Below, piece after piece: positions 11,095 to 39,222 of a DNA stretch of 39,630 nucleotides. Position numbers and translations under genes: made by a program. The notes under the pieces are model-generated. The model saw only the letters and a list, made by a program, of their open reading frames with translations, was not told the DNA's origin and did not search any database. Source of the DNA: a virus. Position 1 is the stretch's first letter, and every line of letters begins with the position of its first letter. Where the stretch lies: the IMG/VR virus record IMGVR_UViG_3300013103_000024, positions 1 through 39,630 of that record. One strand, given 5' to 3'.

Positions 11095-11589
11095 ATGTTT
11101 GGGAATGAATCAATGATACAACGAGTATCGCCATGGTACACTGATGGGGAAATAATTCGCCTCAGGAATCCTGAGTTATCAGTATCTTTGAATGAAATTT
11201 ATATACTTACCACAGATGATGCGACTTTATCCGGCACACCAGTAATCATCCGCTTGCAAGCACCCGATGGCACATATTACTATACAAAAGCATATCCAAA
11301 TGCATCAGCAACAGCAAATGCCACCATAGATGATATAGGTATAGACATTAGAGGAATCAATGATGCAACATTATCAGGCACACCAAAAACCTTTGAAGTC
11401 ATCAGTAATGATACATCATATTATTTCAATGCATATCCAACAATATCAGCGGAATCAGTCAGCAGTCGTGGCATAACCCCAACACCAACACAATATAATC
11501 ATGCAACCCTTTCGGGAACACCACGTGTTGCATCAGCACAAATTAATAGTACAGATTACTATTGGAAAGTATACCCAACCAAATCATAA
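11095..11589 (+). CDS. Protein of three ~40-aa ATLSGTP...Y.K/NAYP repeats; paralog of the C-terminal domain of 15792-16859
   Basis: Three ATLSGTP units; GAGGTGA RBS; 33-nt exact match 11353-11385 = 16623-16655. Confidence 0.7.
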   Translation: MFGNESMIQRVSPWYTDGEIIRLRNPELSVSLNEIYILTTDDATLSGTPVIIRLQAPDGTYYYTKAYPNASATANATIDDIGIDIRGINDATLSGTPKTFEVISNDTSYYFNAYPTISAESVSSRGITPTPTQYNHATLSGTPRVASAQINSTDYYWKVYPTKS

Positions 11590-11614
11590 TAATAATAATA
11601 AGGAGAATATAATA

Positions 11615-11891: not shown

Positions 11892-13151
11892 ATGGCAAAC
11901 AGATCATTAACGAAAGATGTAAGTGATAATATCGTCGCAGGAGCTGTGATCGCAAACTTCTTCTTGAATAAGCGCGACCGTCTACTCGAAAATCACACAG
12001 ATCACGATAAAGTCACATTTAAGGGATCAAACGAGATTCCTTTGAAAATCGGTGATAACTGGTTTTTTTGTGATACAGATGTAAATATCAGCACAGCTAC
12101 TCACATGGACACGGGATCGGTTGCAAATGGTAAAGACTATTATGTTTATGCCTGCAATAATGCTGGCACGCTTGAATTTAAAATCAGTTTGAACTCAACT
12201 ACCCCAACCGGATTCACTGCAGCAAATAGCCGGAAGATTGGTGGCTTCCACACACTGTGCGCAGATGTCGGAACGATCAGTGGGCACGCACTTTCAGGAT
12301 ATGTAGCAAACGACATTTTACCAACATCGATTTGGGATTTGAAGCATCGTCCTATCTGTGAACCAGAGGGCATGGTCTACGATGAAGGCACTGGTATATG
12401 GGTAGACATCTACCTCGCGAGTGGAACCGGAGCCTCAACAGCATCCGTGTATGGTGCAACAATCACAGACTCCCGGAACTGGATGGACTTCGTGGATGAC
12501 GGGCATGCTGTGATGAAACAACTACTCACTGATGAGCAGTTTACATCTATTGCGACAGGTGCCCCCGAAGAAGCACATGTATGGAATCGAAGTGATCCAG
12601 TCACAGCGGGTGGACATTCTGCATATTTCTTACTAACACTTGACGTTGGCCCAGCTGTCGATTGGGCAGCAGGTGATACTATCACTGGAGGAACGAGTGG
12701 TGTGACTTGCACGGTTGTAGAATGTTTGACAAATACGACGTATGTTTGTAAAAATATTAGTGATGCTGCTGGATTTACAGATGGCGAAGTTCTCAGTAAT
12801 GGCGCAGAATCGGCAGATCAGGGGACAGGTTATCCAACGTGGGCAGCACATGCAATGGGTAGAAATGTTTCAAATATTGGGTGTGAAGATTGTGTTGGAG
12901 CAATGCATCAGTGGCTATTGACGCCTTCCGCCCGACTTGATGATGGCACAGCAGGTGGATGGTATGATCTGGCAGGTGGTAAGGGTAGCTTTTACACATA
13001 TGGCAATAATAAATATGGAAACACTCAGCTCCGTGCGGGCGGTGATTGGGACGATGGGGCGTATTGCGGGTCTCGGTGTCGGGATGCGTTTTTCTATCGT
13101 TGGGTTGCGGATTCGCATGTCGGGGCCCGGCTCGGTGCGAAACCGCAGTAA
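11892..13151 (+). CDS. DGR target protein: Mtd-like receptor-binding protein with C-terminal C-type-lectin-fold variable region
   Basis: Mtd-like motifs GKDYYVY, KIGGFH, SIWDL..RP, GM......WVDIYL, SNIGCEDC.G...QW, terminal RAGGDW...CGSR.R...GARLGA; VR covers codons 380-416. Confidence 0.92.
   Translation: MANRSLTKDVSDNIVAGAVIANFFLNKRDRLLENHTDHDKVTFKGSNEIPLKIGDNWFFCDTDVNISTATHMDTGSVANGKDYYVYACNNAGTLEFKISLNSTTPTGFTAANSRKIGGFHTLCADVGTISGHALSGYVANDILPTSIWDLKHRPICEPEGMVYDEGTGIWVDIYLASGTGASTASVYGATITDSRNWMDFVDDGHAVMKQLLTDEQFTSIATGAPEEAHVWNRSDPVTAGGHSAYFLLTLDVGPAVDWAAGDTITGGTSGVTCTVVECLTNTTYVCKNISDAAGFTDGEVLSNGAESADQGTGYPTWAAHAMGRNVSNIGCEDCVGAMHQWLLTPSARLDDGTAGGWYDLAGGKGSFYTYGNNKYGNTQLRAGGDWDDGAYCGSRCRDAFFYRWVADSHVGARLGAKPQ
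13029..13139 (+). repeat. DGR variable repeat (VR), 111 nt
   Basis: Ungapped alignment to 13240-13350 with 24 mismatches, all opposite TR adenines (17 G, 6 T, 1 C). Confidence 0.97.
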
Positions 13152-13213: not shown

Positions 13214-13479
13214 TTGGTTGCGGGGTTATTTAAAGAACACTCCATGCGGGCAGTGATTGGAACAATGGGACGAATTGCAGGTCTCAGTGTCAGAATGCGA
13301 ATAACTATCGTTGGAATGCGAATTCGAATATCAGAGCCCAGCTCAGTGCAGATACAGGAAAATGCGGTGCGAAGCCAACTCCTGGCTGAATCCTTCAACC
13401 ATGCCGAAAGGCGAAACACACAACGGAGGGAACGACCAATTAGTACCACACTGGGAACGCTGGTCGTTCCGAAAACATC
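13214..13479 (+). ncRNA. Probable DGR template RNA (TR plus structured 3' spacer); boundaries approximate
   Basis: Spacer holds three hairpins: AGCCA/TGGCT 13373-13387, GCC-GAAA-GGC 13403-13412, and a 10-bp stem GGAACGACCA/TGGTCGTTCC 13429-13470. Confidence 0.6.
13240..13350 (+). repeat. DGR template repeat (TR), 111 nt
   Basis: AAT/AAC-rich copy of the VR; 32 adenines, 24 of them substituted in the VR; no non-A mismatch. Confidence 0.97.
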
Positions 13480-15367: not shown

Positions 15368-15792
15368 ATACACATGATGAAATCCGAGCTGCTATAATTG
15401 CTACACTGAAAGCGGATGATGCAATAAATGCAGCAGTGAAAACGTGGCTCATTTACTTATTAGATCCTGGCAGAATCACATATCCAGCTATTTATGTTGG
15501 TACAATTACTCAACCATTTGAATGTGAATGTGGAACTGATAAACAATATACAAGTATTGCAAACCCAATGGAAATTACTGTGGGTGTTTTATCAGATTTT
15601 AATACAGATGCAACGGGTACGCTTGGTACAATTTATGAATTAGTATATGCAGCACTTAAAGCATCTCCGACACTGGGACTTTCTGATTTTTATATTCACA
15701 GTATAACTCCAATTACAACAAAACCATTATCAAAATGTGGCAGGGCAGTGATCAGAGCAGAACTCACACTTAATGCAACAGGAGAAACTTAA
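15364..15792 (+). CDS. Tail terminator/completion-like protein
   Basis: IRAAIIATLKAD..I......P....YPAIYVG pattern, 142 aa, position before tail genes. Confidence 0.6.
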   Translation: MNTHDEIRAAIIATLKADDAINAAVKTWLIYLLDPGRITYPAIYVGTITQPFECECGTDKQYTSIANPMEITVGVLSDFNTDATGTLGTIYELVYAALKASPTLGLSDFYIHSITPITTKPLSKCGRAVIRAELTLNATGET

Positions 15793-16859
15793 TGATTGAA
15801 ACATCAACTTATAAGAAAAGACTCTTTGAGTTTTATGAACTGTATCACGAAAGTCGAACTAATATATCAGGGACAACAATAACTGTTGATGGAAAAAACC
15901 CACATGCTGATGTGATAGCATCTTCAGGACACAAATTAAAACGAACACGAGTGTATGTGAATGGCATAAGGGCAACAATAACAGAAGTTGCTGCCAACGG
16001 AGCAAATACAGACATTTCAGTATTAGATACAATTACATTAGGGGATATTGTAGACATATATCTTGCCACAAATACGGGAACACTTGCTAATAACACTGGC
16101 ACTGGAAAATTTCCATTAGTTGAATTACAAACAATTCAAAATTACGGTGTTAAAACTAATAGTTTTGATCAAGTTTGTTTTGGGTCCGGACGCAAAGAAT
16201 TTAGAAGATTTGAATCAGATGGCGTGGCATTACTCGGCACAAATCGCAGAGGAAATAACAACTTCAAAAATTTCATAATGGCACGACAGAATGGAACATA
16301 CCTGATGATCCTTGTAAAAGATTCTACTAATTTAAATATAATTTATGACATTCTCCATGAAGTAAGAGTTGAATCTTATAAAAGATTAACACGATCCATT
16401 GAAACAAAAGATGGAATAATAACAGATTTGATTACATTTCGTTTTGTTCCAGAAGTATCAACAACTGCTGCACTTCAGCATGCAACATCATTTGATGATA
16501 CAACTTTATCTGGCACGCCAACAATTATAAAATTCCAGAACCCGGATTACTTCGCAAAAGTGTATCCAACCGCTTCAGTAACAGCAAACGAAGTATCTGA
16601 TCCAATCGGGACTGACGTTCTTGGAATCAATGATGCAACATTATCAGGCACACCATTAGTTGCAGAGATAATAAGTGGTGAAACTAAATATTATATAAAA
16701 GTGTATCCAACCATATCAGCCGAAGTTGTTGCAAGTACGGGGATTGTTCTATCTCCCGTATTTCATTCTAATGCAACCCTTTTAGGTACACCAAGAATCT
16801 TAGCCATTCCAATCAATGGAACAAATCAATACATTAAAGGATACCCCCATAAGGTATAA
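15792..16859 (+). CDS. Tail-tube-like protein paralog 1 with C-terminal triple ATLSGTP repeat domain
   Basis: First ~220 aa paralogous to 16898-17581 and 17593-18297; last ~125 aa paralogous to 11095-11589. Confidence 0.55.
   Translation: MIETSTYKKRLFEFYELYHESRTNISGTTITVDGKNPHADVIASSGHKLKRTRVYVNGIRATITEVAANGANTDISVLDTITLGDIVDIYLATNTGTLANNTGTGKFPLVELQTIQNYGVKTNSFDQVCFGSGRKEFRRFESDGVALLGTNRRGNNNFKNFIMARQNGTYLMILVKDSTNLNIIYDILHEVRVESYKRLTRSIETKDGIITDLITFRFVPEVSTTAALQHATSFDDTTLSGTPTIIKFQNPDYFAKVYPTASVTANEVSDPIGTDVLGINDATLSGTPLVAEIISGETKYYIKVYPTISAEVVASTGIVLSPVFHSNATLLGTPRILAIPINGTNQYIKGYPHKV
15890..15991 (+). repeat. 102-nt perfect direct repeat, copy 1 (copy 2 at 16996-17097)
   Basis: Direct comparison; a second identical 41-nt block at 15810-15850 / 16916-16956. 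Confidence 0.95.
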
Positions 16860-16897: not shown

Positions 16898-17581
16898 ATG
16901 ACAGATATAACAACCTATAAGAAAAGACTCTTTGAGTTTTATGAACTGTATCACGATGTGCAAGACACAGCATCAGGGACCACAGTCACCGTGACTGGAA
17001 AAAACCCACATGCTGATGTGATAGCATCTTCAGGACACAAATTAAAACGAACACGAGTGTATGTGAATGGCATAAGGGCAACAATAACAGAAGTTGCAGC
17101 ATCTGGCGCAGATACGGTTATCACGGTATCTGATACAATCAATTCTGGGGACAAAGTAGACATATATCTCGCAACAACGGTGGGGACGCTTGTTAACAAT
17201 ACTGATACTGGAAAGTTCCCATTGGTTGAATTACAAGCATTGCAGAATTATAAAACCACTTCAAATACATTTGATCAACCCGGATGTGGCACGGAGCGTT
17301 TGGAAACCATTAAGTTTGCATCAGATGGTGAAGCAACAATGAATTTAATTCGCAGGGGTAATGATACTTTCAAAAATTTCATAATGGCACGACAAAATGG
17401 CAAATACTTAATGATCATTGCAAGAAATACTACAGATGCAGCTAACACAGTTTATGAGGTTATCTCTGAAGCAAGAGTTACCAGTTATAGCAGAGGCACG
17501 CGAGCAATTGATGCAAAGGGTGGTGAAGTTGTGGATCAAATTAAATTCCAATATGTACCACCAGTAGAAATTTCAACATAG
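16898..17581 (+). CDS. Tail-tube-like protein paralog 2
   Basis: 227 aa, AGGAG RBS, paralogous to neighbours. Confidence 0.55.
   Translation: MTDITTYKKRLFEFYELYHDVQDTASGTTVTVTGKNPHADVIASSGHKLKRTRVYVNGIRATITEVAASGADTVITVSDTINSGDKVDIYLATTVGTLVNNTDTGKFPLVELQALQNYKTTSNTFDQPGCGTERLETIKFASDGEATMNLIRRGNDTFKNFIMARQNGKYLMIIARNTTDAANTVYEVISEARVTSYSRGTRAIDAKGGEVVDQIKFQYVPPVEIST
16996..17097 (+). repeat. 102-nt perfect direct repeat, copy 2
   Basis: Identical to 15890-15991. Confidence 0.95.
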
Positions 17582-25718: not shown

Positions 25719-26171
25719 TTAGCTTACTGAATCTGCGAATGCTATTGCCATTCGTTTAGCATCATCAAGAGTTTTCGCCGTGAACCCGACTGGCAAACTC
25801 ATATCTTCTTCAGGATGTTGGCTCAGATATTCAGCTGTCCATCCTGACATTGCTGTGCAATCACCTTCTTTTACAACATCTCCAATACCAAAACCACACA
25901 TAGCCCGATGTGACCACCCATACCATTTTTGATCTCGCTCTGAAAAACCAATCGAACAAATGCAATCAGTTTGTCTAATTTTTTCAGGAGCAATACCATA
26001 CTTCACAACCAGCCTATGTGCTTCCTTTGATGTTCCTATCCAGTCACCGTTTGGGGTATATGCCATTCGTTTCATCAGTGTTTTTTCACCAAATGAATCC
26101 CAGTATTCATCCCGAACGACATAGCCTGCTTTATATTTTCTTTCCCTAATTACTTCTGTTACATTTACCAT
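25719..26171 (-). CDS. Conserved-looking phage hypothetical protein (CSIGFSE..QKWYGWSHRA motif)
   Basis: Likely start ATG 26171 with GAAGG RBS; the ORF track's extension to 26354 overlaps the upstream gene. Confidence 0.6.
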   Translation of the reverse strand: MVNVTEVIRERKYKAGYVVRDEYWDSFGEKTLMKRMAYTPNGDWIGTSKEAHRLVVKYGIAPEKIRQTDCICSIGFSERDQKWYGWSHRAMCGFGIGDVVKEGDCTAMSGWTAEYLSQHPEEDMSLPVGFTAKTLDDAKRMAIAFADSVS

Positions 26172-26199
26172 AATTTTACCTTCCAAAAATTCTTTACTT

Positions 26200-26667
26200 T
26201 TAAAATTGTATAAAATCTGGTTTATAATCACTTTGTTTCCAGTGCATTGTTTCATCATTTTGAGGTTCGATAATAATGATCTGCATATCTTCTGATCGAA
26301 TTGTAAGATTAAACGCGTGATAACCTGCTGGCACACAGCCTTCGCAATATGCATACAGATAGTTCACATTATTGATTCGTCCTAACTCTCGTATTCTGCA
26401 TCTTGACTCAAGAGCAAAGTCATCACAATCGCTAACTGTCTTCAAGTATCGCATTTCATTGAGCGAATCTGTATTAAGCCATCTGATGAGTTCGGAATAT
26501 GGCGGAATAATATACATTCGATCTGAAATTCTTAGTTCTGCATCTGGATATGCTTTTTCAATTATGTCTACAATTTCATGTGCAAATATATCATAATCTG
26601 CGTTCTCGAATCGAAATGGTTTCTGTTTGGGACAAAGTGCCTGACAAATAATATGACGCAAGTTCAT
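26200..26667 (-). CDS. Papain/transglutaminase-like cysteine protease (Cys-His-Glu), candidate endolysin
   Basis: DCDDFA...YHAFN...IIEPQND catalytic pattern; located in the operon with the holin-like gene. Confidence 0.65.
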   Translation of the reverse strand: MNLRHIICQALCPKQKPFRFENADYDIFAHEIVDIIEKAYPDAELRISDRMYIIPPYSELIRWLNTDSLNEMRYLKTVSDCDDFALESRCRIRELGRINNVNYLYAYCEGCVPAGYHAFNLTIRSEDMQIIIIEPQNDETMHWKQSDYKPDFIQF

Positions 26668-27919: not shown

Positions 27920-28747
27920 TTAAATATAATTTTTAATTTTATGAAAATTAAACAATGTTGTTTGATATTTGTGTTTTTGGAATATATTATTCACTTTATC
28001 AAGATATGAGTACCAATTACGCTTTAATTCGCTTTGATTTGATGCATACATTTGTTTTTTCTGGTATTTATATTTACAATCATTGTGTGTCCACGCTGCT
28101 GTATCACAACTATGCAAACGGCTAAATATTGCATAGTTTCTTAAAAATGATATTTTAAAGCCAAAAAAATGTGTTTTCGCATCTGAATATCTACGTATAT
28201 GATCCATTATCTTTGTAAATAGCTTAGAATATCTATTGCGTTGGCACACTGAACCAAATGCAACATAATCAGTAATAAGTTCACGTTTATGCATTTCATC
28301 TATACAAAACTTATAATCATCTAAATCCCATCCTTGTATTACAGGAATTATTTTTGTTCCATTATATGAATAATTGTTTAACATTAACTCATTATTTTCA
28401 ATAGTTTTTATTATTCGATCTTTTACTGATAGCTGGCACATGCTTTCTTTGTTTGTGATTTCAAGTATTGGTTCACAAGGATAATCCATCGTGGCTGCAA
28501 ATGTGGGTTTAATGCGCCTTATTAACGAACTGTATTGATCCATATTGAATGGATATTCATGCCATTTTGAAAGCAACGAAAATCCACCACTATCAAGAAA
28601 AAACGATTTATGTGGAGGAATGAACTTTGATAATGTAAAATCCATAGTTCTTTTTGAGAAGAAATACGATGCTGGCATCATAAGATATGGATAAAAATCA
28701 AGCTTCTTATCAAGCGATGATCCTGACAAAACCATATAAAAATTCAT
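27920..28747 (-). CDS. tRNA-guanine transglycosylase-like (DpdA/TGT-like) TIM-barrel protein
   Basis: FFLDSGGFS, MDYPCEP, IIPVIQGW, VAFGSVC, THFFG, SCDTAAW match the TGT-fold motif order. Confidence 0.75.
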   Translation of the reverse strand: MNFYMVLSGSSLDKKLDFYPYLMMPASYFFSKRTMDFTLSKFIPPHKSFFLDSGGFSLLSKWHEYPFNMDQYSSLIRRIKPTFAATMDYPCEPILEITNKESMCQLSVKDRIIKTIENNELMLNNYSYNGTKIIPVIQGWDLDDYKFCIDEMHKRELITDYVAFGSVCQRNRYSKLFTKIMDHIRRYSDAKTHFFGFKISFLRNYAIFSRLHSCDTAAWTHNDCKYKYQKKQMYASNQSELKRNWYSYLDKVNNIFQKHKYQTTLFNFHKIKNYI

Positions 28748-29627: not shown

Positions 29628-30197
29628 TCATTCAAACCATTTTGATAAAACATCTTGTTGGGGTGGATAAAGTTCTTTAATGTTTATTTTTTTAATACAA
29701 TCACTATTAAAATCCTTAATTGGAATTGCTATATTATCAGTATGCCATCTCCGAGTTCCTCTTACTGATACTGCACGTTTTTGCAATGGTGTGTGTATCT
29801 TAAGATATTGCTTTAAAAACTCTCTAATATTGTTCATAAATAACAAATATCCATCAATGAATTTTTTACCAGTTTCATTTTTCCACACATAAACAATAAC
29901 ATCAGATTTTGAAGAATATAACCAACCAGGTTTTTCATCTTCAACTACTGATACAGTTTCTAAAAGAATATCTTTAAACTGATATGCATAGAAGTCTCTA
30001 CATTTCACATCAAATGATAATTCGTTATGTGTTATATTAAAATCAATACCATTGCGTTGTTTTTGTGTTTCTGTTATCGAATTACCATATACAAATTGTT
30101 GTAATATCGGTTCAAAAACCACTTTAAATTTATCACGAACCATGTCTTCACATATTCCACCTTCTTTGACATTTATATTAAAATCATTTGTATTCAT
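29628..30197 (-). CDS. PD-(D/E)XK restriction-endonuclease-like protein
   Basis: E...R...GIDF...SFDVKCRD...DILLET...KPGW; coupled to the MT-A70 gene. Confidence 0.7.
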   Translation of the reverse strand: MNTNDFNINVKEGGICEDMVRDKFKVVFEPILQQFVYGNSITETQKQRNGIDFNITHNELSFDVKCRDFYAYQFKDILLETVSVVEDEKPGWLYSSKSDVIVYVWKNETGKKFIDGYLLFMNNIREFLKQYLKIHTPLQKRAVSVRGTRRWHTDNIAIPIKDFNSDCIKKINIKELYPPQQDVLSKWFE

Positions 30198-31531
30198 ACT
30201 TCATTACCCCACACTGTCCATTTATCATTATGCCGTTTTCTTGCAAACATTTCGAGATACTTTCCATCGGGGAACATTTTCTCAATCATTTCGTAAACAC
30301 AATCTGGTTTTTTGCTGTGTGTGGTTCGTGTTTCCCGTATCACACTACTAAACCGATTTTCTGGTATCGGTGGTGAATAGTTTCCCTTTTTACCAACAAG
30401 CAATAATTCGTGTTGCCCTCTGAACCAGTAACCCATCCCGATTTTTTCTTTATCCCACACAGCACCTGTTAGATATTTAAAACCCCAAAACTCCATTAAG
30501 TCAAGTGCTTCTATTAATTTTGGCATTGTAGCCCACATTAAAACTACACTATCATTAGCAGCAGGAACAGGAAGGTTTTTTATTTCTTCCAGTTCCATCG
30601 TTTGATAATGATTCTCAATTTCACGATTACCAGTTTCTGTGAAATCATATTTCCATGGAGGATCAACATAAATCACATCAAATTTATCAACAGGCAATGG
30701 AGGGGTTTCTATTTTCGGCATAGATTTATTTTCTTCAATTTTTTTTATATCGTTCAACGCCTTTCTGGGAGTGGTTTCACCCTTTAACACTGATGGTAAA
30801 ATTTTCTTAGCTTTTTCGTTACCTTCTTTTGCTTTGTCCAATATCTTCAAAGTTTCGTGAGCTGCATTAACAGTAACTTCGTTGTTGTTCAGTTTATCAA
30901 GAACCTCTCTTGCGATTTTATCACCATTATCTGCCTTATCTACAATGACTTCAACTTTTGTGTAATTGGTACGTTTCATACCAACTTCATCGGCCACTTT
31001 ATTACGCGTTTCGTTCTCACTTGCTTTTGGTTTTGTTGTTTCGGGTAACGCTTCCGTCAACATTGGCGGAAGCGTTGCTTCGTTGCCTATTTTTTTACCT
31101 TCTCGTTCCGCCAATGTTGGCGGAACGACAATCGTTTCTTTAACATTATTCAATTGTGATAATTGTTTTAACCGTGCACGTTCAGCATAGATTACCTTCA
31201 ACGTTTTACCTTCCCTCACACGCTGTTCTGGTGTCTTCTCTCTTTGACGGTTGAATTCTATCATCGCCTCCTTTTCATCCAAATCATTATCAAAAGTGAT
31301 GGTTCGACATGGAATTCTATCAAGTTTCAAATGTTTAGCAGCAAGCCACCGTCTATGACCTGATAGGATAATATTATCATCACGAATAACAAGTGGTTCA
31401 AGAATGCCTTTGTTTTTAATACTCTCTACTAAATCCATATCAATGGATTCATTACCATAAATTTCAACGTTCAGATTGTGTGGTCTAAGTTCTTTTGGTG
31501 ATTTGAGAACGTTATAAGCCATACTTACCAT
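30194..31531 (-). CDS. ParB-HTH-MT-A70 family adenine methyltransferase fusion
   Basis: N-terminal ParB (GILEPLVI..DNIILSGHRRW); C-terminal DVIYVDPPW, HYQTM, WGFKY, GMGYWFRGQHE, HSKKPD, YLEMFAR. Confidence 0.9.
   Translation of the reverse strand: MVSMAYNVLKSPKELRPHNLNVEIYGNESIDMDLVESIKNKGILEPLVIRDDNIILSGHRRWLAAKHLKLDRIPCRTITFDNDLDEKEAMIEFNRQREKTPEQRVREGKTLKVIYAERARLKQLSQLNNVKETIVVPPTLAEREGKKIGNEATLPPMLTEALPETTKPKASENETRNKVADEVGMKRTNYTKVEVIVDKADNGDKIAREVLDKLNNNEVTVNAAHETLKILDKAKEGNEKAKKILPSVLKGETTPRKALNDIKKIEENKSMPKIETPPLPVDKFDVIYVDPPWKYDFTETGNREIENHYQTMELEEIKNLPVPAANDSVVLMWATMPKLIEALDLMEFWGFKYLTGAVWDKEKIGMGYWFRGQHELLLVGKKGNYSPPIPENRFSSVIRETRTTHSKKPDCVYEMIEKMFPDGKYLEMFARKRHNDKWTVWGNEV
31047..31127. 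repeat. Two related palindromes in the ParB-MTase linker (31047-31076, 31104-31127)
   Basis: AACGCTTCCGTCAA-CA-TTGGCGGAAGCGTT and CGTTCCGCCAA-TG-TTGGCGGAACG. Confidence 0.85.
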
Positions 31532-31840: not shown

Positions 31841-32821
31841 TTATTCCTCCGTGAAAAATGATTCGATATGCGGAATATGGGATTTGCATCGTTCGGGATA
31901 CAGGGATTCCCATTGTGGATCAATCTCAAAGCCAATGCAATTGCGATTTGTTCTACGACATGCTTCGAGGGTTGTGCCACTGCCGAGAAATGGATCGCAG
32001 ATTAGATCACCTTCATTGCTTGATATCTTGATCATCCTTTCGATCAATTCAACTGGCTTTGTTGTCGGATGGCTTGTGTTCTCTGCACCACTTATGATCG
32101 GGATGTCAAATACTTCGTACATATTCTTATATGGATTGAATACACGCCGCAAGTCCTCATAGTTCCGCACAAAAAAACCAGTCTTCCTTAATTTCCCGTA
32201 TAGTTCGAGAGTTGGAAAACAATATTGTGAATCTGCAAAGTAATGGCGGGTTACAACTGATTTGGTGTCAGTGATTTTGTTCAAGTATGCATCACACTCT
32301 GCTTTTGTCTTAAACCCATTCGCTTCCATCACCTTCTGATATTCCCCTCGCATGTATTCTTTTATCGGTGCGAAACAATCTTTATCACTATGAATTGCCT
32401 GAAGCCCAGTTGCTGGTAATCCATTTTCAGATTTTTGTTCGTAGAATAAAATGCGCTCCGAAATGCAAACATAACGTCTTGAGCTCATTGCACCCTTGAT
32501 GCTCTGATTATTTCGTTTATACCAAACCAGATGATTCAAAAATGAAAAATGCTTATCAAGTCTCACTTGAATATATGCAATTCTGTGATCATCACCAAAA
32601 ACATATAACGAACCGTTTGGCTTTAAAATTCTCTTAATTTCTATTGCTATTGATTCAAGCCAATTAAGATATTCATCAAACGTCTCCCACTGTTTATCCC
32701 AATCTGCCTTATTAACTTTGTAGTAAGGAGGATCGGTCAACACCAAATCAACACTATTATCTTCAAGTTCTTTCATTAACTCCAAACAATTGCCAATTTT
32801 CCAAATCTGCTTCGTTATCAT
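31841..32821 (-). CDS. Beta-class amino (N4C/N6A) DNA methyltransferase
   Basis: GNCLELM, VDLVLTDPPY, HPTTKP, DPFLGSGTT, GFEID. Confidence 0.92.
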   Translation of the reverse strand: MITKQIWKIGNCLELMKELEDNSVDLVLTDPPYYKVNKADWDKQWETFDEYLNWLESIAIEIKRILKPNGSLYVFGDDHRIAYIQVRLDKHFSFLNHLVWYKRNNQSIKGAMSSRRYVCISERILFYEQKSENGLPATGLQAIHSDKDCFAPIKEYMRGEYQKVMEANGFKTKAECDAYLNKITDTKSVVTRHYFADSQYCFPTLELYGKLRKTGFFVRNYEDLRRVFNPYKNMYEVFDIPIISGAENTSHPTTKPVELIERMIKISSNEGDLICDPFLGSGTTLEACRRTNRNCIGFEIDPQWESLYPERCKSHIPHIESFFTEE

Positions 32822-36766: not shown

Positions 36767-36875
36767 CGTCGTCGTAATACTGGATGTTGAAGAATATCTT
36801 CCCTGTCACCACGCAGCTTTCGCCTGTATGCCGGTTTGTGTATCGCTTCCCTACTTCAATGCGTTTTCGGTTCAT
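36609..36875 (-). CDS. Hypothetical protein (probably chimeric; 3' part reads out of frame through the PAPS remnant)
   Basis: IEVGKRYTNRHTG SH3-like start with GGAGG RBS. Confidence 0.45.
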   Translation of the reverse strand: MNRKRIEVGKRYTNRHTGESCVVTGKIFFNIQYYDDDDPHRTHAKYCHYKRFQKNWREEGRWTYRSATNIGLVGKRRVGIYHIEQLAI

Positions 36876-39222
36876 TGTTACCTCCGAAATATCCTGTTAG
36901 CGGTGGTGTGTGTGCCATTGCGATATCAGGAAGAGGTTTGTCTTTGATGTAAAATCCATCTTTCATACAGTTCTCTTCCATCTTCAACGCTTTGTCATAC
37001 AAATCCCGGTGGTTCAAAAACAATTCACGGACTTCGAGTTTGTGCATAAATGGACAGAACCAACATCCGCTTTTTTGTGGCACTTTAAGACCATGATCTT
37101 TTATCAGATTGATACAGTCGTCACGGTTCATCTCTGCATCGATGAGTGGGTATCGATATGTTATTGCGGGCAGTTTTTCTTTCGATTCTTTGTTGTTGTA
37201 CTGTTTTTTACCATCCAGCGATGTCGTTCTTTTTTGTTCGTCATAGTCAAAACCAATATATTCCACACATGGTGTTTGGATATATTTCAACATCGGACGT
37301 ACTTTGAATTTATCCGTACACCACCTAAACCGAAAAGATGGTAAAATCCTACATTTCATCGAATAATCATAGATTGTATGATACCCTTCCACATCTGGGA
37401 TAATCTCCGTTATCTCAAATCCTTGGTCACGTAAATAATCCACATACGCGTAAGTTTCGGGATAATCACCGCCATGATTCACAAATATGGTCTCGAACTC
37501 CTCACCATGATCTGTGAGTAGAAGGAGCAGCGCAGTCGAATTGACGCCGCCACCAAACGAAAGATACTGTTTCATGTTTCCAATCCTCATTACAATCTCC
37601 GATTTTCCACTTGTGTTGTTTTCTATCATCTCGAATAAATCGAATCCTTGTCTGTTCTTTTCTTCTGTAATTTGATCGATCACATCTCTCTTGCTTTCAA
37701 CCATTTCAATTATTATACCATCTATTGTTTTTTCTGCAAGGAGATACCAACAATTTACAGCGTCCTTTTGACCTATTCTATGTGCTCGATCTTCACATTG
37801 TTTTAGCATCTCAGGACCATCTGCAAGTTCCAGGAATGCAACATTGCTGGCTGCTGTAAGTGTCAATCCTTGTCCTGCTGCCTGAATGTTCCCAATGAAA
37901 AGCCGTATTTTTTGATCGTTCTGGAATGCCTTAACTGCCTTATCCTTTGCCTCTGCTTTCATTCCTCCGATTACGGAAACTGCACAATCTGAAAATTCAT
38001 CCACCAACGTCTTAATTGTTGTCCTGTGCGTCCCAAAAACGATAAGTTTCTCGCCTGATTCGAGAAAGTTTTTAATCCATTCAATTGCAGCTTTCATCTT
38101 GCCACGAATTGCAACCTGCTTAAGATATTCTCGCTTCGCAAGTTGCTCAACATTAGATGCTCGTTCTGCTGCTTCCATACCTTTTTGTTCTGCTAACCAT
38201 GTGAAAAATTCTTTCTCAGCACGATCATATTCTTTGCGATTATCAATTGGTATCAAGACAGCTGATCTTCTCTTCGCTGGCAGTTCTGAAAGTACCTGTT
38301 CTTTTGTTCTTCTAATCATTACAGTCTTAAGTGACTGTGCCAGTTCGTCAAGATTTGAAGCTCCAGAGAAGTCCCAACCAAAGCGATTTTTAGTGGCATT
38401 ACAGAACTTCTTATGCCATTGAAAGAATCGCTTATCTGGATATTCGTCTGGTTTCACAACTTGTAACTGATGCCACAGTTCTGCGGGACGATTCAGAACT
38501 GGCGTTCCTGTCAGGAGTATCCTGTGCGGAACGACTGATGCCAATTCCCTTGCTGCTTTTGATCTTGCAGCAGCTTTTGATTTAATATAATGACTTTCGT
38601 CATATATTAATACTTTTGGATTAAAGTCTATCAATGTTGGTAACCACTTTTTCAGTATGTCATAGTTTATTACTACAATATCTCCTGATAACGATTTGGC
38701 TTTCCCACCATTAACAATCTCAATACGATCTCCTGTTTCAAGCCACATCTCCGCCTCTCGTTGCCAGTTCAACTTAAGTGATGCAGGACATACAATCACA
38801 GCTGGACGCTGTTCTGGATGTAATGCGAGATATGCGAGTGCTTCAATGGTTTTGCCAAGCCCGGGTTCATCCGCTACCAAACAATTCCCATTGGTTGCCT
38901 CTATGAATTCCAGTCCTGCGCGTTGGAATGGCATCAGTTCTTTACCATTCCCGAAGTGCTCAAGACTGAAATCTGATGTGGTTTGTGTTGCCTTCTTGCT
39001 GATCGAACGAACCTCTGCCAACCGTTTTTTGAATCCTTCTGTTTGTTCTGCTTCCGGGAAGGCTGTCACCATCTCTTCAATGATCGAGGTGGGGCATACC
39101 CAATACGGCTTTACCCATCTACGTTCTGATAATGCTCTACATCGATCCTTTTCACTGAAAGGAGCTTGCACTCCAACCATGCCAGACATGAAACTCACAA
39201 GTCTGATCTTTCCTTTCTTCAT
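36856..39222 (-). CDS. SNF2/SMARCAL1-like helicase fused in frame to a PAPS-reductase-like (HUP) domain
   Basis: ADEPGLGKT, DESH, LTGTP, QCEDRAHRIGQ (aa 1-~545); from aa 550 YLSFGGGVNS, DYPETY, WCTDKFKV, YPLID, KSGCWFCPF. Confidence 0.85.
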   Translation of the reverse strand: MKKGKIRLVSFMSGMVGVQAPFSEKDRCRALSERRWVKPYWVCPTSIIEEMVTAFPEAEQTEGFKKRLAEVRSISKKATQTTSDFSLEHFGNGKELMPFQRAGLEFIEATNGNCLVADEPGLGKTIEALAYLALHPEQRPAVIVCPASLKLNWQREAEMWLETGDRIEIVNGGKAKSLSGDIVVINYDILKKWLPTLIDFNPKVLIYDESHYIKSKAAARSKAARELASVVPHRILLTGTPVLNRPAELWHQLQVVKPDEYPDKRFFQWHKKFCNATKNRFGWDFSGASNLDELAQSLKTVMIRRTKEQVLSELPAKRRSAVLIPIDNRKEYDRAEKEFFTWLAEQKGMEAAERASNVEQLAKREYLKQVAIRGKMKAAIEWIKNFLESGEKLIVFGTHRTTIKTLVDEFSDCAVSVIGGMKAEAKDKAVKAFQNDQKIRLFIGNIQAAGQGLTLTAASNVAFLELADGPEMLKQCEDRAHRIGQKDAVNCWYLLAEKTIDGIIIEMVESKRDVIDQITEEKNRQGFDLFEMIENNTSGKSEIVMRIGNMKQYLSFGGGVNSTALLLLLTDHGEEFETIFVNHGGDYPETYAYVDYLRDQGFEITEIIPDVEGYHTIYDYSMKCRILPSFRFRWCTDKFKVRPMLKYIQTPCVEYIGFDYDEQKRTTSLDGKKQYNNKESKEKLPAITYRYPLIDAEMNRDDCINLIKDHGLKVPQKSGCWFCPFMHKLEVRELFLNHRDLYDKALKMEENCMKDGFYIKDKPLPDIAMAHTPPLTGYFGGNNEPKTH

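Follow-up and report, generated by a model that had tools for sequence, protein, structure and literature searches.

TR adenines that precede G are almost always G in the VRs of a DGR lineage without Avd

The closest described relatives of the DGR considered here are the lineage 3 DGRs, which have a CLec3 VR and a target-TR-RT cassette (Wu et al. 2018, PMC5758913) and are known to be without avd (PMC5758913). They include the DGR of crAssphage LMMB (PMC7290462). A further similar system is that of the archaeal virus ANMV-1 (PMC4372165). In the papers on lineage 3, LMMB and ANMV-1 each TR adenine is treated as mutable (PMC5758913, PMC7290462, PMC4372165). All 28 TR adenines of LMMB are taken as mutable, giving about 10^17 sequences (PMC7290462), and the 21 variable codons of ANMV-1 are reckoned to allow more than 10^18 variants (PMC4372165). 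Surveys find G to be the commonest substitution and deem substitutions essentially random (PMC3521204, PMC6642488), and sequence context is not addressed in a large metagenome survey (PMC8144416). Context effects have been described for the Bordetella enzyme, bRT. There the 3' neighbour dominates the error spectrum (PMC12875486), and a template G 3' of the adenine strongly biases the outcome to A-to-G (10.1101/2025.03.24.644984). The AG context also lowers the mutation rate of bRT, whose overall misincorporation is about 30% (10.1101/2025.03.24.644984; PMC12875486).

We analysed a stretch of 39,630 nt from an archaeal tailed virus, here called the window. It contains an intact Avd-less DGR with the cassette order target-TR-RT ('lineage 3'; Table 1). 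The VR lies at the target gene's 3' end, the stop codon of that gene being 12 nt past the VR. Between the VR end and the TR there are 100 nt, of which 88 lie past the target stop codon, and between the TR and the RT start 129 nt. No gene stands between VR and TR, which is the order of lineage 3 cassettes. The repeats, which end in GTGCG and GTGCA, form a 111-nt pair that differs only at the adenines of one copy, and the RT carries both signatures of DGR-type RTs, [I/V/L]GxxxSQ (as IGNYTSQ) and YxDD (as YCDD). Pfam and PHROG searches found no bAvd among the ORFs of the cassette; the same family, PF22296, was detected in ORFs of the out-group and of BPP-1. The nearest named record is Methanosarcinales virus vir525, with an RT 64% identical. 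The C-type lectin fold of the target protein's C-terminal VR domain is putative: the protein has no match under E 0.1 among PDB sequences, and an AF2 model of the domain, made from an 11-sequence alignment, is unusable at a pLDDT of only 40.

Table 1. Positions of the DGR parts and of other features discussed in the text, numbered along the 39,630-nt window.
Feature	Position	Strand	Remarks
DGR target gene, Mtd-like tail protein, 419 aa	11892..13151	+	Pfam mtd_2nd E 1e-25; PHROG 11262 tail protein E 2e-57
VR	13029..13139	+	111-nt gap-free repeat of TR, offset 211; 24/24 differences opposite TR adenines
Inverted repeat, possible target-site hairpin	13106-13117 / 13136-13147		12 nt, 92% complementary
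TR	13240..13350	+	32 adenines; gap-free alignment to VR
TR-to-RT spacer	13351..13479	+	10-bp stem 13429-13438 / 13461-13470
DGR reverse transcriptase, 340 aa	13480..14502	+	Pfam RVT_1; PHROG 1423 E 1e-114; IGNYTSQW, YCDD
Candidate accessory ORF, 103 aa	14480..14791	+	Overlaps RT stop; not Avd
Adjacent tail-region genes	15792-16327, 16898-17433		Direct repeats spaced 1106 nt
Shorter repeat modules in common	11191-11597, 16494-16801
DNA-modification/counter-defence candidates	25719-26354, 27920-28747, 30194-31531, 31841-32821, 36856-39222	-
DNA-modification/counter-defence candidate	1545-2735	+

Several further elements accompany the cassette. The inverted repeat spans the 3' end of the VR, its left arm lying in variable sequence and its right arm crossing the end of the TR/VR homology; it is possibly a target-site hairpin. 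The spacer between TR and RT folds with an MFE of -35.8 kcal/mol (z -2.2), and in a consensus structure from 13 relatives 15 of the 27 pairs show compensatory changes. A long hairpin directly upstream of the RT start belongs to it, with a TAGTA segment conserved in the loop. The spacer probably forms the 3' portion of the DGR RNA, serving for priming or as a scaffold in an Avd-less system. Equivalents of the 103-aa ORF, 50-59% identical, occupy the same position in vir525 and in two other related archaeal-virus cassettes (L005 and L012). The ORF belongs to no Pfam family, and its PHROG match, phrog_19665, is of unknown function. An AF2 model (pLDDT 79) has the order strand-strand-strand-helix-strand-strand and is OB-like, and a fold search with it returned weak OB-fold-like matches only, none at E <= 0.001. 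The product is possibly an accessory protein other than Avd. Since crAss-like phages and ANMV-1 have, downstream of the RT, small ORFs that share no Pfam family with it, we do not claim an accessory protein common to all.

Elsewhere in the genome, the DNA-modification and counter-defence candidates include a DpdA-like base-exchange enzyme, a ParB-MT-A70 protein, two N6/N4 methylases and a SNF2 helicase fused to a PAPS-reductase domain. A strong match (E 4e-58) to Tad6, an inhibitor of Thoeris, is also present and comes as a surprise in an archaeal virus. The direct repeats of the adjacent tail-region genes are 80-90% identical over 59-279 nt, which suggests a tandem duplication.

In the window, every one of the 24 mismatches between TR and VR falls at a TR adenine and none at another base. 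A sequence-only reading had noted that each CpA of the TR is CpG in the VR, and had proposed near-deterministic A-to-G recoding after C. The count is exact: all 10 adenines that follow C (13244, 13252, 13264, 13279, 13286, 13292, 13333, 13340, 13345 and 13350) are G in the VR, with a hypergeometric chance of 3.0e-4 given 17 G among the 32 adenines, and the remaining 22 are distributed as A8/G7/T6/C1, as counted before. Because 8 of the 10 CpA sites are CAG, the window supports equally well a rule that looks to the base on the other side. All nine adenines followed by G (13252, 13279, 13286, 13292, 13333, 13335, 13340, 13345 and 13350) are G in the VR (p 8.7e-4). The CpA adenines outside ApG, at 13244 (CAT) and 13264 (CAA), are G as well, and the 21 adenines in neither context are A8/G6/T6/C1. 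One of the sites is synonymous, as the same reading had it (GCA/GCG, 13350/13139). Of the eight residues that it had assigned to the protein scaffold, G384, G393, R395, R397, G411 and R413 vary little or not at all among 11 related target proteins, unlike R381 and G415. A public contig of 151 nt, possibly from the window's own source sample, carries a sequence identical to the TR. The public-run contigs, fragmentary and from hydrothermal-vent runs, extended over the TR and part of the RT; the VR was in none of them. A second contig of the same vent sample (run X1, 5.1 kb) aligned to 13243-13332 with 13 differences from the TR, and has G at 13286 and 13292; its repeat is from a related element in the same community.

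RT scans over viral and metagenome contigs yielded 117 loci, to which BPP-1, ANMV-1, nine crAss-like phages, Psychrobacillus phage Perkons and BalMu-1 were added from annotated records. TR/VR pairs were sought blind to context, with adenine as a wildcard in one copy, and were found in most loci. In the compact architecture (63 pairs) the VR-to-TR offset is 141-281 nt and there is no intervening gene; in the spaced, or Avd-type, architecture (29 pairs) the offset is at least 433 nt, and the ORF between VR and TR was bAvd (PF22296) in the cases checked. The RT tree unites 59 compact RTs in one clade (SH-aLRT 98), in which the window, the crAss-like phages and Perkons are found. The clade is taken as lineage 3 of Wu et al. 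since crAssphage LMMB, which falls in the same clade as the window RT, is so assigned in its publication (PMC7290462); the placement is tied to lineage 3 via LMMB. ANMV-1 is compact and shows the pattern described below, yet its long branch falls outside the main clade. Two crAssphage genomes, ZA (L137) and O-152 (L138), retain the VR and also the TR, which is intact and the same as in DGR-positive relatives; they match 49% and 30% of the TR-RT query, respectively, and the greater part of their RT is apparently lost. The VR of O-152 is identical to that of another genome (L136) and that of ZA is closely similar, as if frozen.

Adenines were classified by their neighbours, with the first 8 nt of each TR excluded. 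In the 63 compact pairs, ApG adenines are G in the VR at 325 of 340 sites and adenines in other contexts at about 30%; as related TRs contribute many homologous positions, the sites are less independent than the counts suggest. The fraction of G is higher for ApG than for other adenines in 63/63 compact pairs (sign test 2e-19). By triplet, conversion reaches 278/287 (97%) at CAG, 21/23 (91%) at GAG and 24/27 (89%) at TAG. It is 84/99 (85%) at CAC, 20/48 (42%) at CAA, 33% at GAA, 24% at TAA, 3/13 (23%) at CAT and 17% at AAT. In AAC, GAC and TAC the outcomes are nearly all A or G, with 38-49% G and 44-55% A. Conversion is incomplete, 13 of the 340 ApG adenines remaining A. The few AAG adenines that remained A occur at positions 2-6 of the TR, on the 5' edge of the repeats or outside it. 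The nine crAss-like phages give 54/59 and ANMV-1 six G and one C. The Hankyphage TR is uninformative as a same-host comparison because it has no ApG adenines. The 29 spaced pairs behave differently: 9/46 ApG adenines are G and 35/46 remain A, with 0/15 converted at CAG (all remain A), 5/16 at GAG and 4/14 at AAG.

The change is thus A-to-G, context-dependent and nearly deterministic, as the sequence-only reading had claimed, but its main determinant is the 3' G and not the 5' C. The tabulation by neighbour that had been suggested as a check goes against 5' C at CAA and CAT and for it at CAC. By these counts the rule is A before G, plus CAC, and a 5' C alone is neither sufficient nor needed. 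The pattern is general to the compact-cassette lineage and not peculiar to this virus. Its presence in 63/63 relatives with the same cassette supports the view that the conversion is neither recent drift nor an assembly error.

Every VR is a snapshot from an assembled genome and has already passed through selection. At fourfold-degenerate third positions of the compact DGRs, ApG is nevertheless G at 92/94 sites and CAC at 35/39; the other contexts give 32G/18T/10C/34A. In the crAss-like phages only, 17 of 18 fourfold ApG sites are G, and in the spaced DGRs all five remain A. Protein selection is ruled out as the cause by the 92/94, which bears out the earlier remark that selection alone does not explain the pattern. 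Fourfold sites could still be under constraint at the nucleotide level. In-frame stops in TRs (one TAG>TGG and a few TGA) are too rare to test for obligatory conversion.

In two pairs of loci (L001/L005 and L003/L022) the same TR accompanies different VRs, and eight Carjivirus crAssphage genomes have one TR (with a single-base difference in one genome) and seven different VRs. In the latter, 66 of 71 ApG adenines are G and none is C or T, and the other adenines vary over all four bases. Of the nine ApG adenines, seven are G in every genome whose TR retains the ApG, and two are only A or G; one CAG site is A in 4/8 genomes. The genome in which the TR has TAT in place of TAG has A in its VR there. 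An alignment of 47 TRs extends the comparison. Its AAY columns have A in 44-47 of the 47 TRs. The columns in which VRs are nearly all G are mixtures of A and G in the TR (23/23, 18/29, 29/18, 22/23 and 15/32). At the CpA positions of the window, where the sequence-only reading had counted G in related TRs (through recent drift or an assembly error) as evidence against recoding, relatives do have A or G, about half each, and the VR is G either way. Such mixed columns are expected if A before G is read as G, which makes G-to-A neutral. A and G would accordingly be interchangeable in the TR where every VR has G.

The pattern is found in viruses of Methanosarcinales and other archaea, in human-gut Crassvirales, and in a Bacillota phage (Perkons). 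What is established is the pattern itself, that it is limited to one RT lineage and does not depend on the host, and that it occurs at synonymous sites. From this distribution we infer that cDNA synthesis by the RT is the responsible step. We put at roughly 70% the probability that the RTs of lineage 3 intrinsically read ApG as G and randomise ordinary adenines. A TR would then contain two kinds of adenines: ordinary ones, mostly in AAY codons, which are randomised, and ApG and CAC adenines, which are nearly always written as G. Since the RT copies RNA 3' to 5', the 3' G is the base just copied. After placing dC opposite the template G, the enzyme would insert dC rather than dT opposite the next A, and ApG would thereby be read as GG. 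If A before G means G, a G-to-A change at such a TR position would be silent, and silent positions could drift freely, most visibly in AT-rich phage genomes. The result would be TRs in which many scaffold codons have adenines that never diversify. The trait is most likely an extreme, lineage-specific form of the bias of Bordetella bRT.

Candidate determinants of ApG conversion are found in the IGxxxSQ motif, whose first residue in bRT (I181) affects adenine mutagenesis (PMC7826257). The motif reads IGN[Y/F]xSQ[W/Y/F] in 57/57 compact RTs in which it was found (IGNYTSQW at residues 184-191 of the window RT) and IGN[L/V]xSQ[L/M/F/I] in 22/23 spaced RTs, the 23rd being BPP-1 bRT with IGSLTSQL. 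The split between compact and Avd-type motifs is complete in the 83 RTs with a motif found; as the compact form has a single phylogenetic origin, this signature is a correlation only. Compact RTs also have an additional Pro ahead of a conserved DR (FNPDR; residues 79-84 of the window RT), an insertion that Avd-type RTs do not have. It is somewhat more probable than its opposite that Avd-less RTs encode a second decoding rule in the enzyme itself, by which an A read straight after a G is copied as if it were G with an efficiency of at least 95%, other adenines are randomised, and the Tyr/Trp variants of the motif are candidate determinants. If so, TRs could hold silent adenines, which would lower the TR-VR identity of repeats that lie about 100 nt apart.

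Other explanations have been weighed against RT-intrinsic reading of ApG as G. The one that survives best, though we regard it as unlikely, places the conversion after cDNA synthesis: ApG adenines would give only T or C in the cDNA, and a T:G mismatch with the old VR would be short-patch-repaired to C:G, so that an existing G persists. Retrohoming is thought to involve annealing of cDNA and target strand, with mismatch repair altering the outcome (PMC12875486), the AG context yields nearly only A-to-G with the Bordetella enzyme (10.1101/2025.03.24.644984), and a simple model of the process does give fixation of G. The pattern, however, follows the RT lineage across viruses of archaea, Bacteroidota and Bacillota, which differ in their repair systems; more generally, a trait that tracks the RT and not the host argues against host repair and host RNA editing alike. 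Repair of T:G without regard to context should also fix G at TAC, GAC and AAC, where about half of the sites are A, and a CpG-specific version leaves TAG and GAG unexplained, which are G at 9/10 fourfold sites. Recoding that depends on a 5' C is less probable still. It accounts for all ten CpA sites of the window, and a 5' C does contribute, CAC being converted about twice as often as AAC, GAC and TAC; but 8 of those ten sites are CAG, CAA and CAT behave as ordinary sites (CAA gives 1A/2C/1G/1T at fourfold positions), and TAG and GAG are converted with no 5' C.

Adenosine deaminases acting on RNA favour a 3' G. A-to-I editing of the TR RNA by an enzyme with this preference, the inosine being read as G, would leave an identical pattern in the VR, and the known preference speaks for it. 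It is nonetheless very improbable: a Pfam scan of cassette ORFs and larger window proteins revealed no deaminase, the RT is the sole gene common to all cassettes that bear the pattern, and the hosts range over Archaea and Bacteria. Hardly any weight is left for decay of the TR, the second option of the sequence-only reading, by which G-to-A changes have accumulated in the TR and only rare retrohoming products that restore G survive. Most converted sites do encode conserved Gly or Arg residues of the scaffold, but the synonymous ApG sites contradict it. About ten sites per TR at about 25% G would leave about one viable product per million, yet genomes with a shared TR have many VRs; the window has no non-adenine mismatch, and the feature is stable over a deep RT clade. 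CpG methylation and deamination of the TR was set aside: conversion occurs at TAG and GAG but not at CAA and CAT, and the pattern, which is strand-specific, occurs in a single RT lineage only.

Reading of ApG as G by the RT adds a rule for the interpretation of DGR templates: at least a third of TR adenines would be non-diversifying in one large lineage, which takes in human-gut crAss-like phages as well as archaeal viruses. The published repertoires of ANMV-1 (>10^18) and LMMB (about 10^17) would then be overestimates, and any count for these TRs by 4^(number of adenines) would likewise be too high. The rule would also account for adenines in scaffold codons of these TRs that do not poison the target protein. 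Natural RTs with a near-complete bias offer a comparative handle on adenine mutagenesis, with candidate residues. In directed evolution based on DGRs, one template could set both randomised positions and fixed A-to-G positions.

The sequence-only reading was thus correct as to the kind of explanation and mistaken as to which neighbour matters: this is a known context bias of DGR RTs, brought near completion in an Avd-less lineage. In the literature searched, of which our coverage is incomplete, we found no earlier account of natural DGRs with a nearly deterministic rule for ApG. The window shares its cassette order and its lack of bAvd with the lineage 3 DGRs and with crAssphage LMMB, and its RT groups with those of crAss-like phages; unlike here, the papers on these systems give no context rule (PMC5758913, PMC7290462). 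ANMV-1 is likewise an archaeal virus; its target is Mtd-like, Avd is missing between its VR and TR (PMC4372165), and its repeats of 114-116 nt, about 210 nt apart, are similar. Its RT, however, shares only 37% identity and cannot be placed with certainty in the tree. The Avd-type DGRs (BPP-1, BalMu-1 and the out-group loci) differ in having bAvd between VR and TR, and their TR ApG adenines, unlike those of the compact lineage, are scarce and mostly remain A. As in bRT, insertion appears to be governed by the 3' neighbour of the adenine, the template base that has just been copied, and a 3' G leads to dC and thus to A-to-G. The near-complete conversion cannot simply be extrapolated from bRT, because the AG context lowers the mutation rate of that enzyme, which misincorporates at about 30%, whereas conversion in the present lineage is about 96%, silent sites included. 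In AC contexts bRT inserts G, giving A-to-C, and the lineage gives A or G and almost never C. Also unlike bRT, the RT of the window is encoded in a cassette that, judged from its ORFs, works without Avd.
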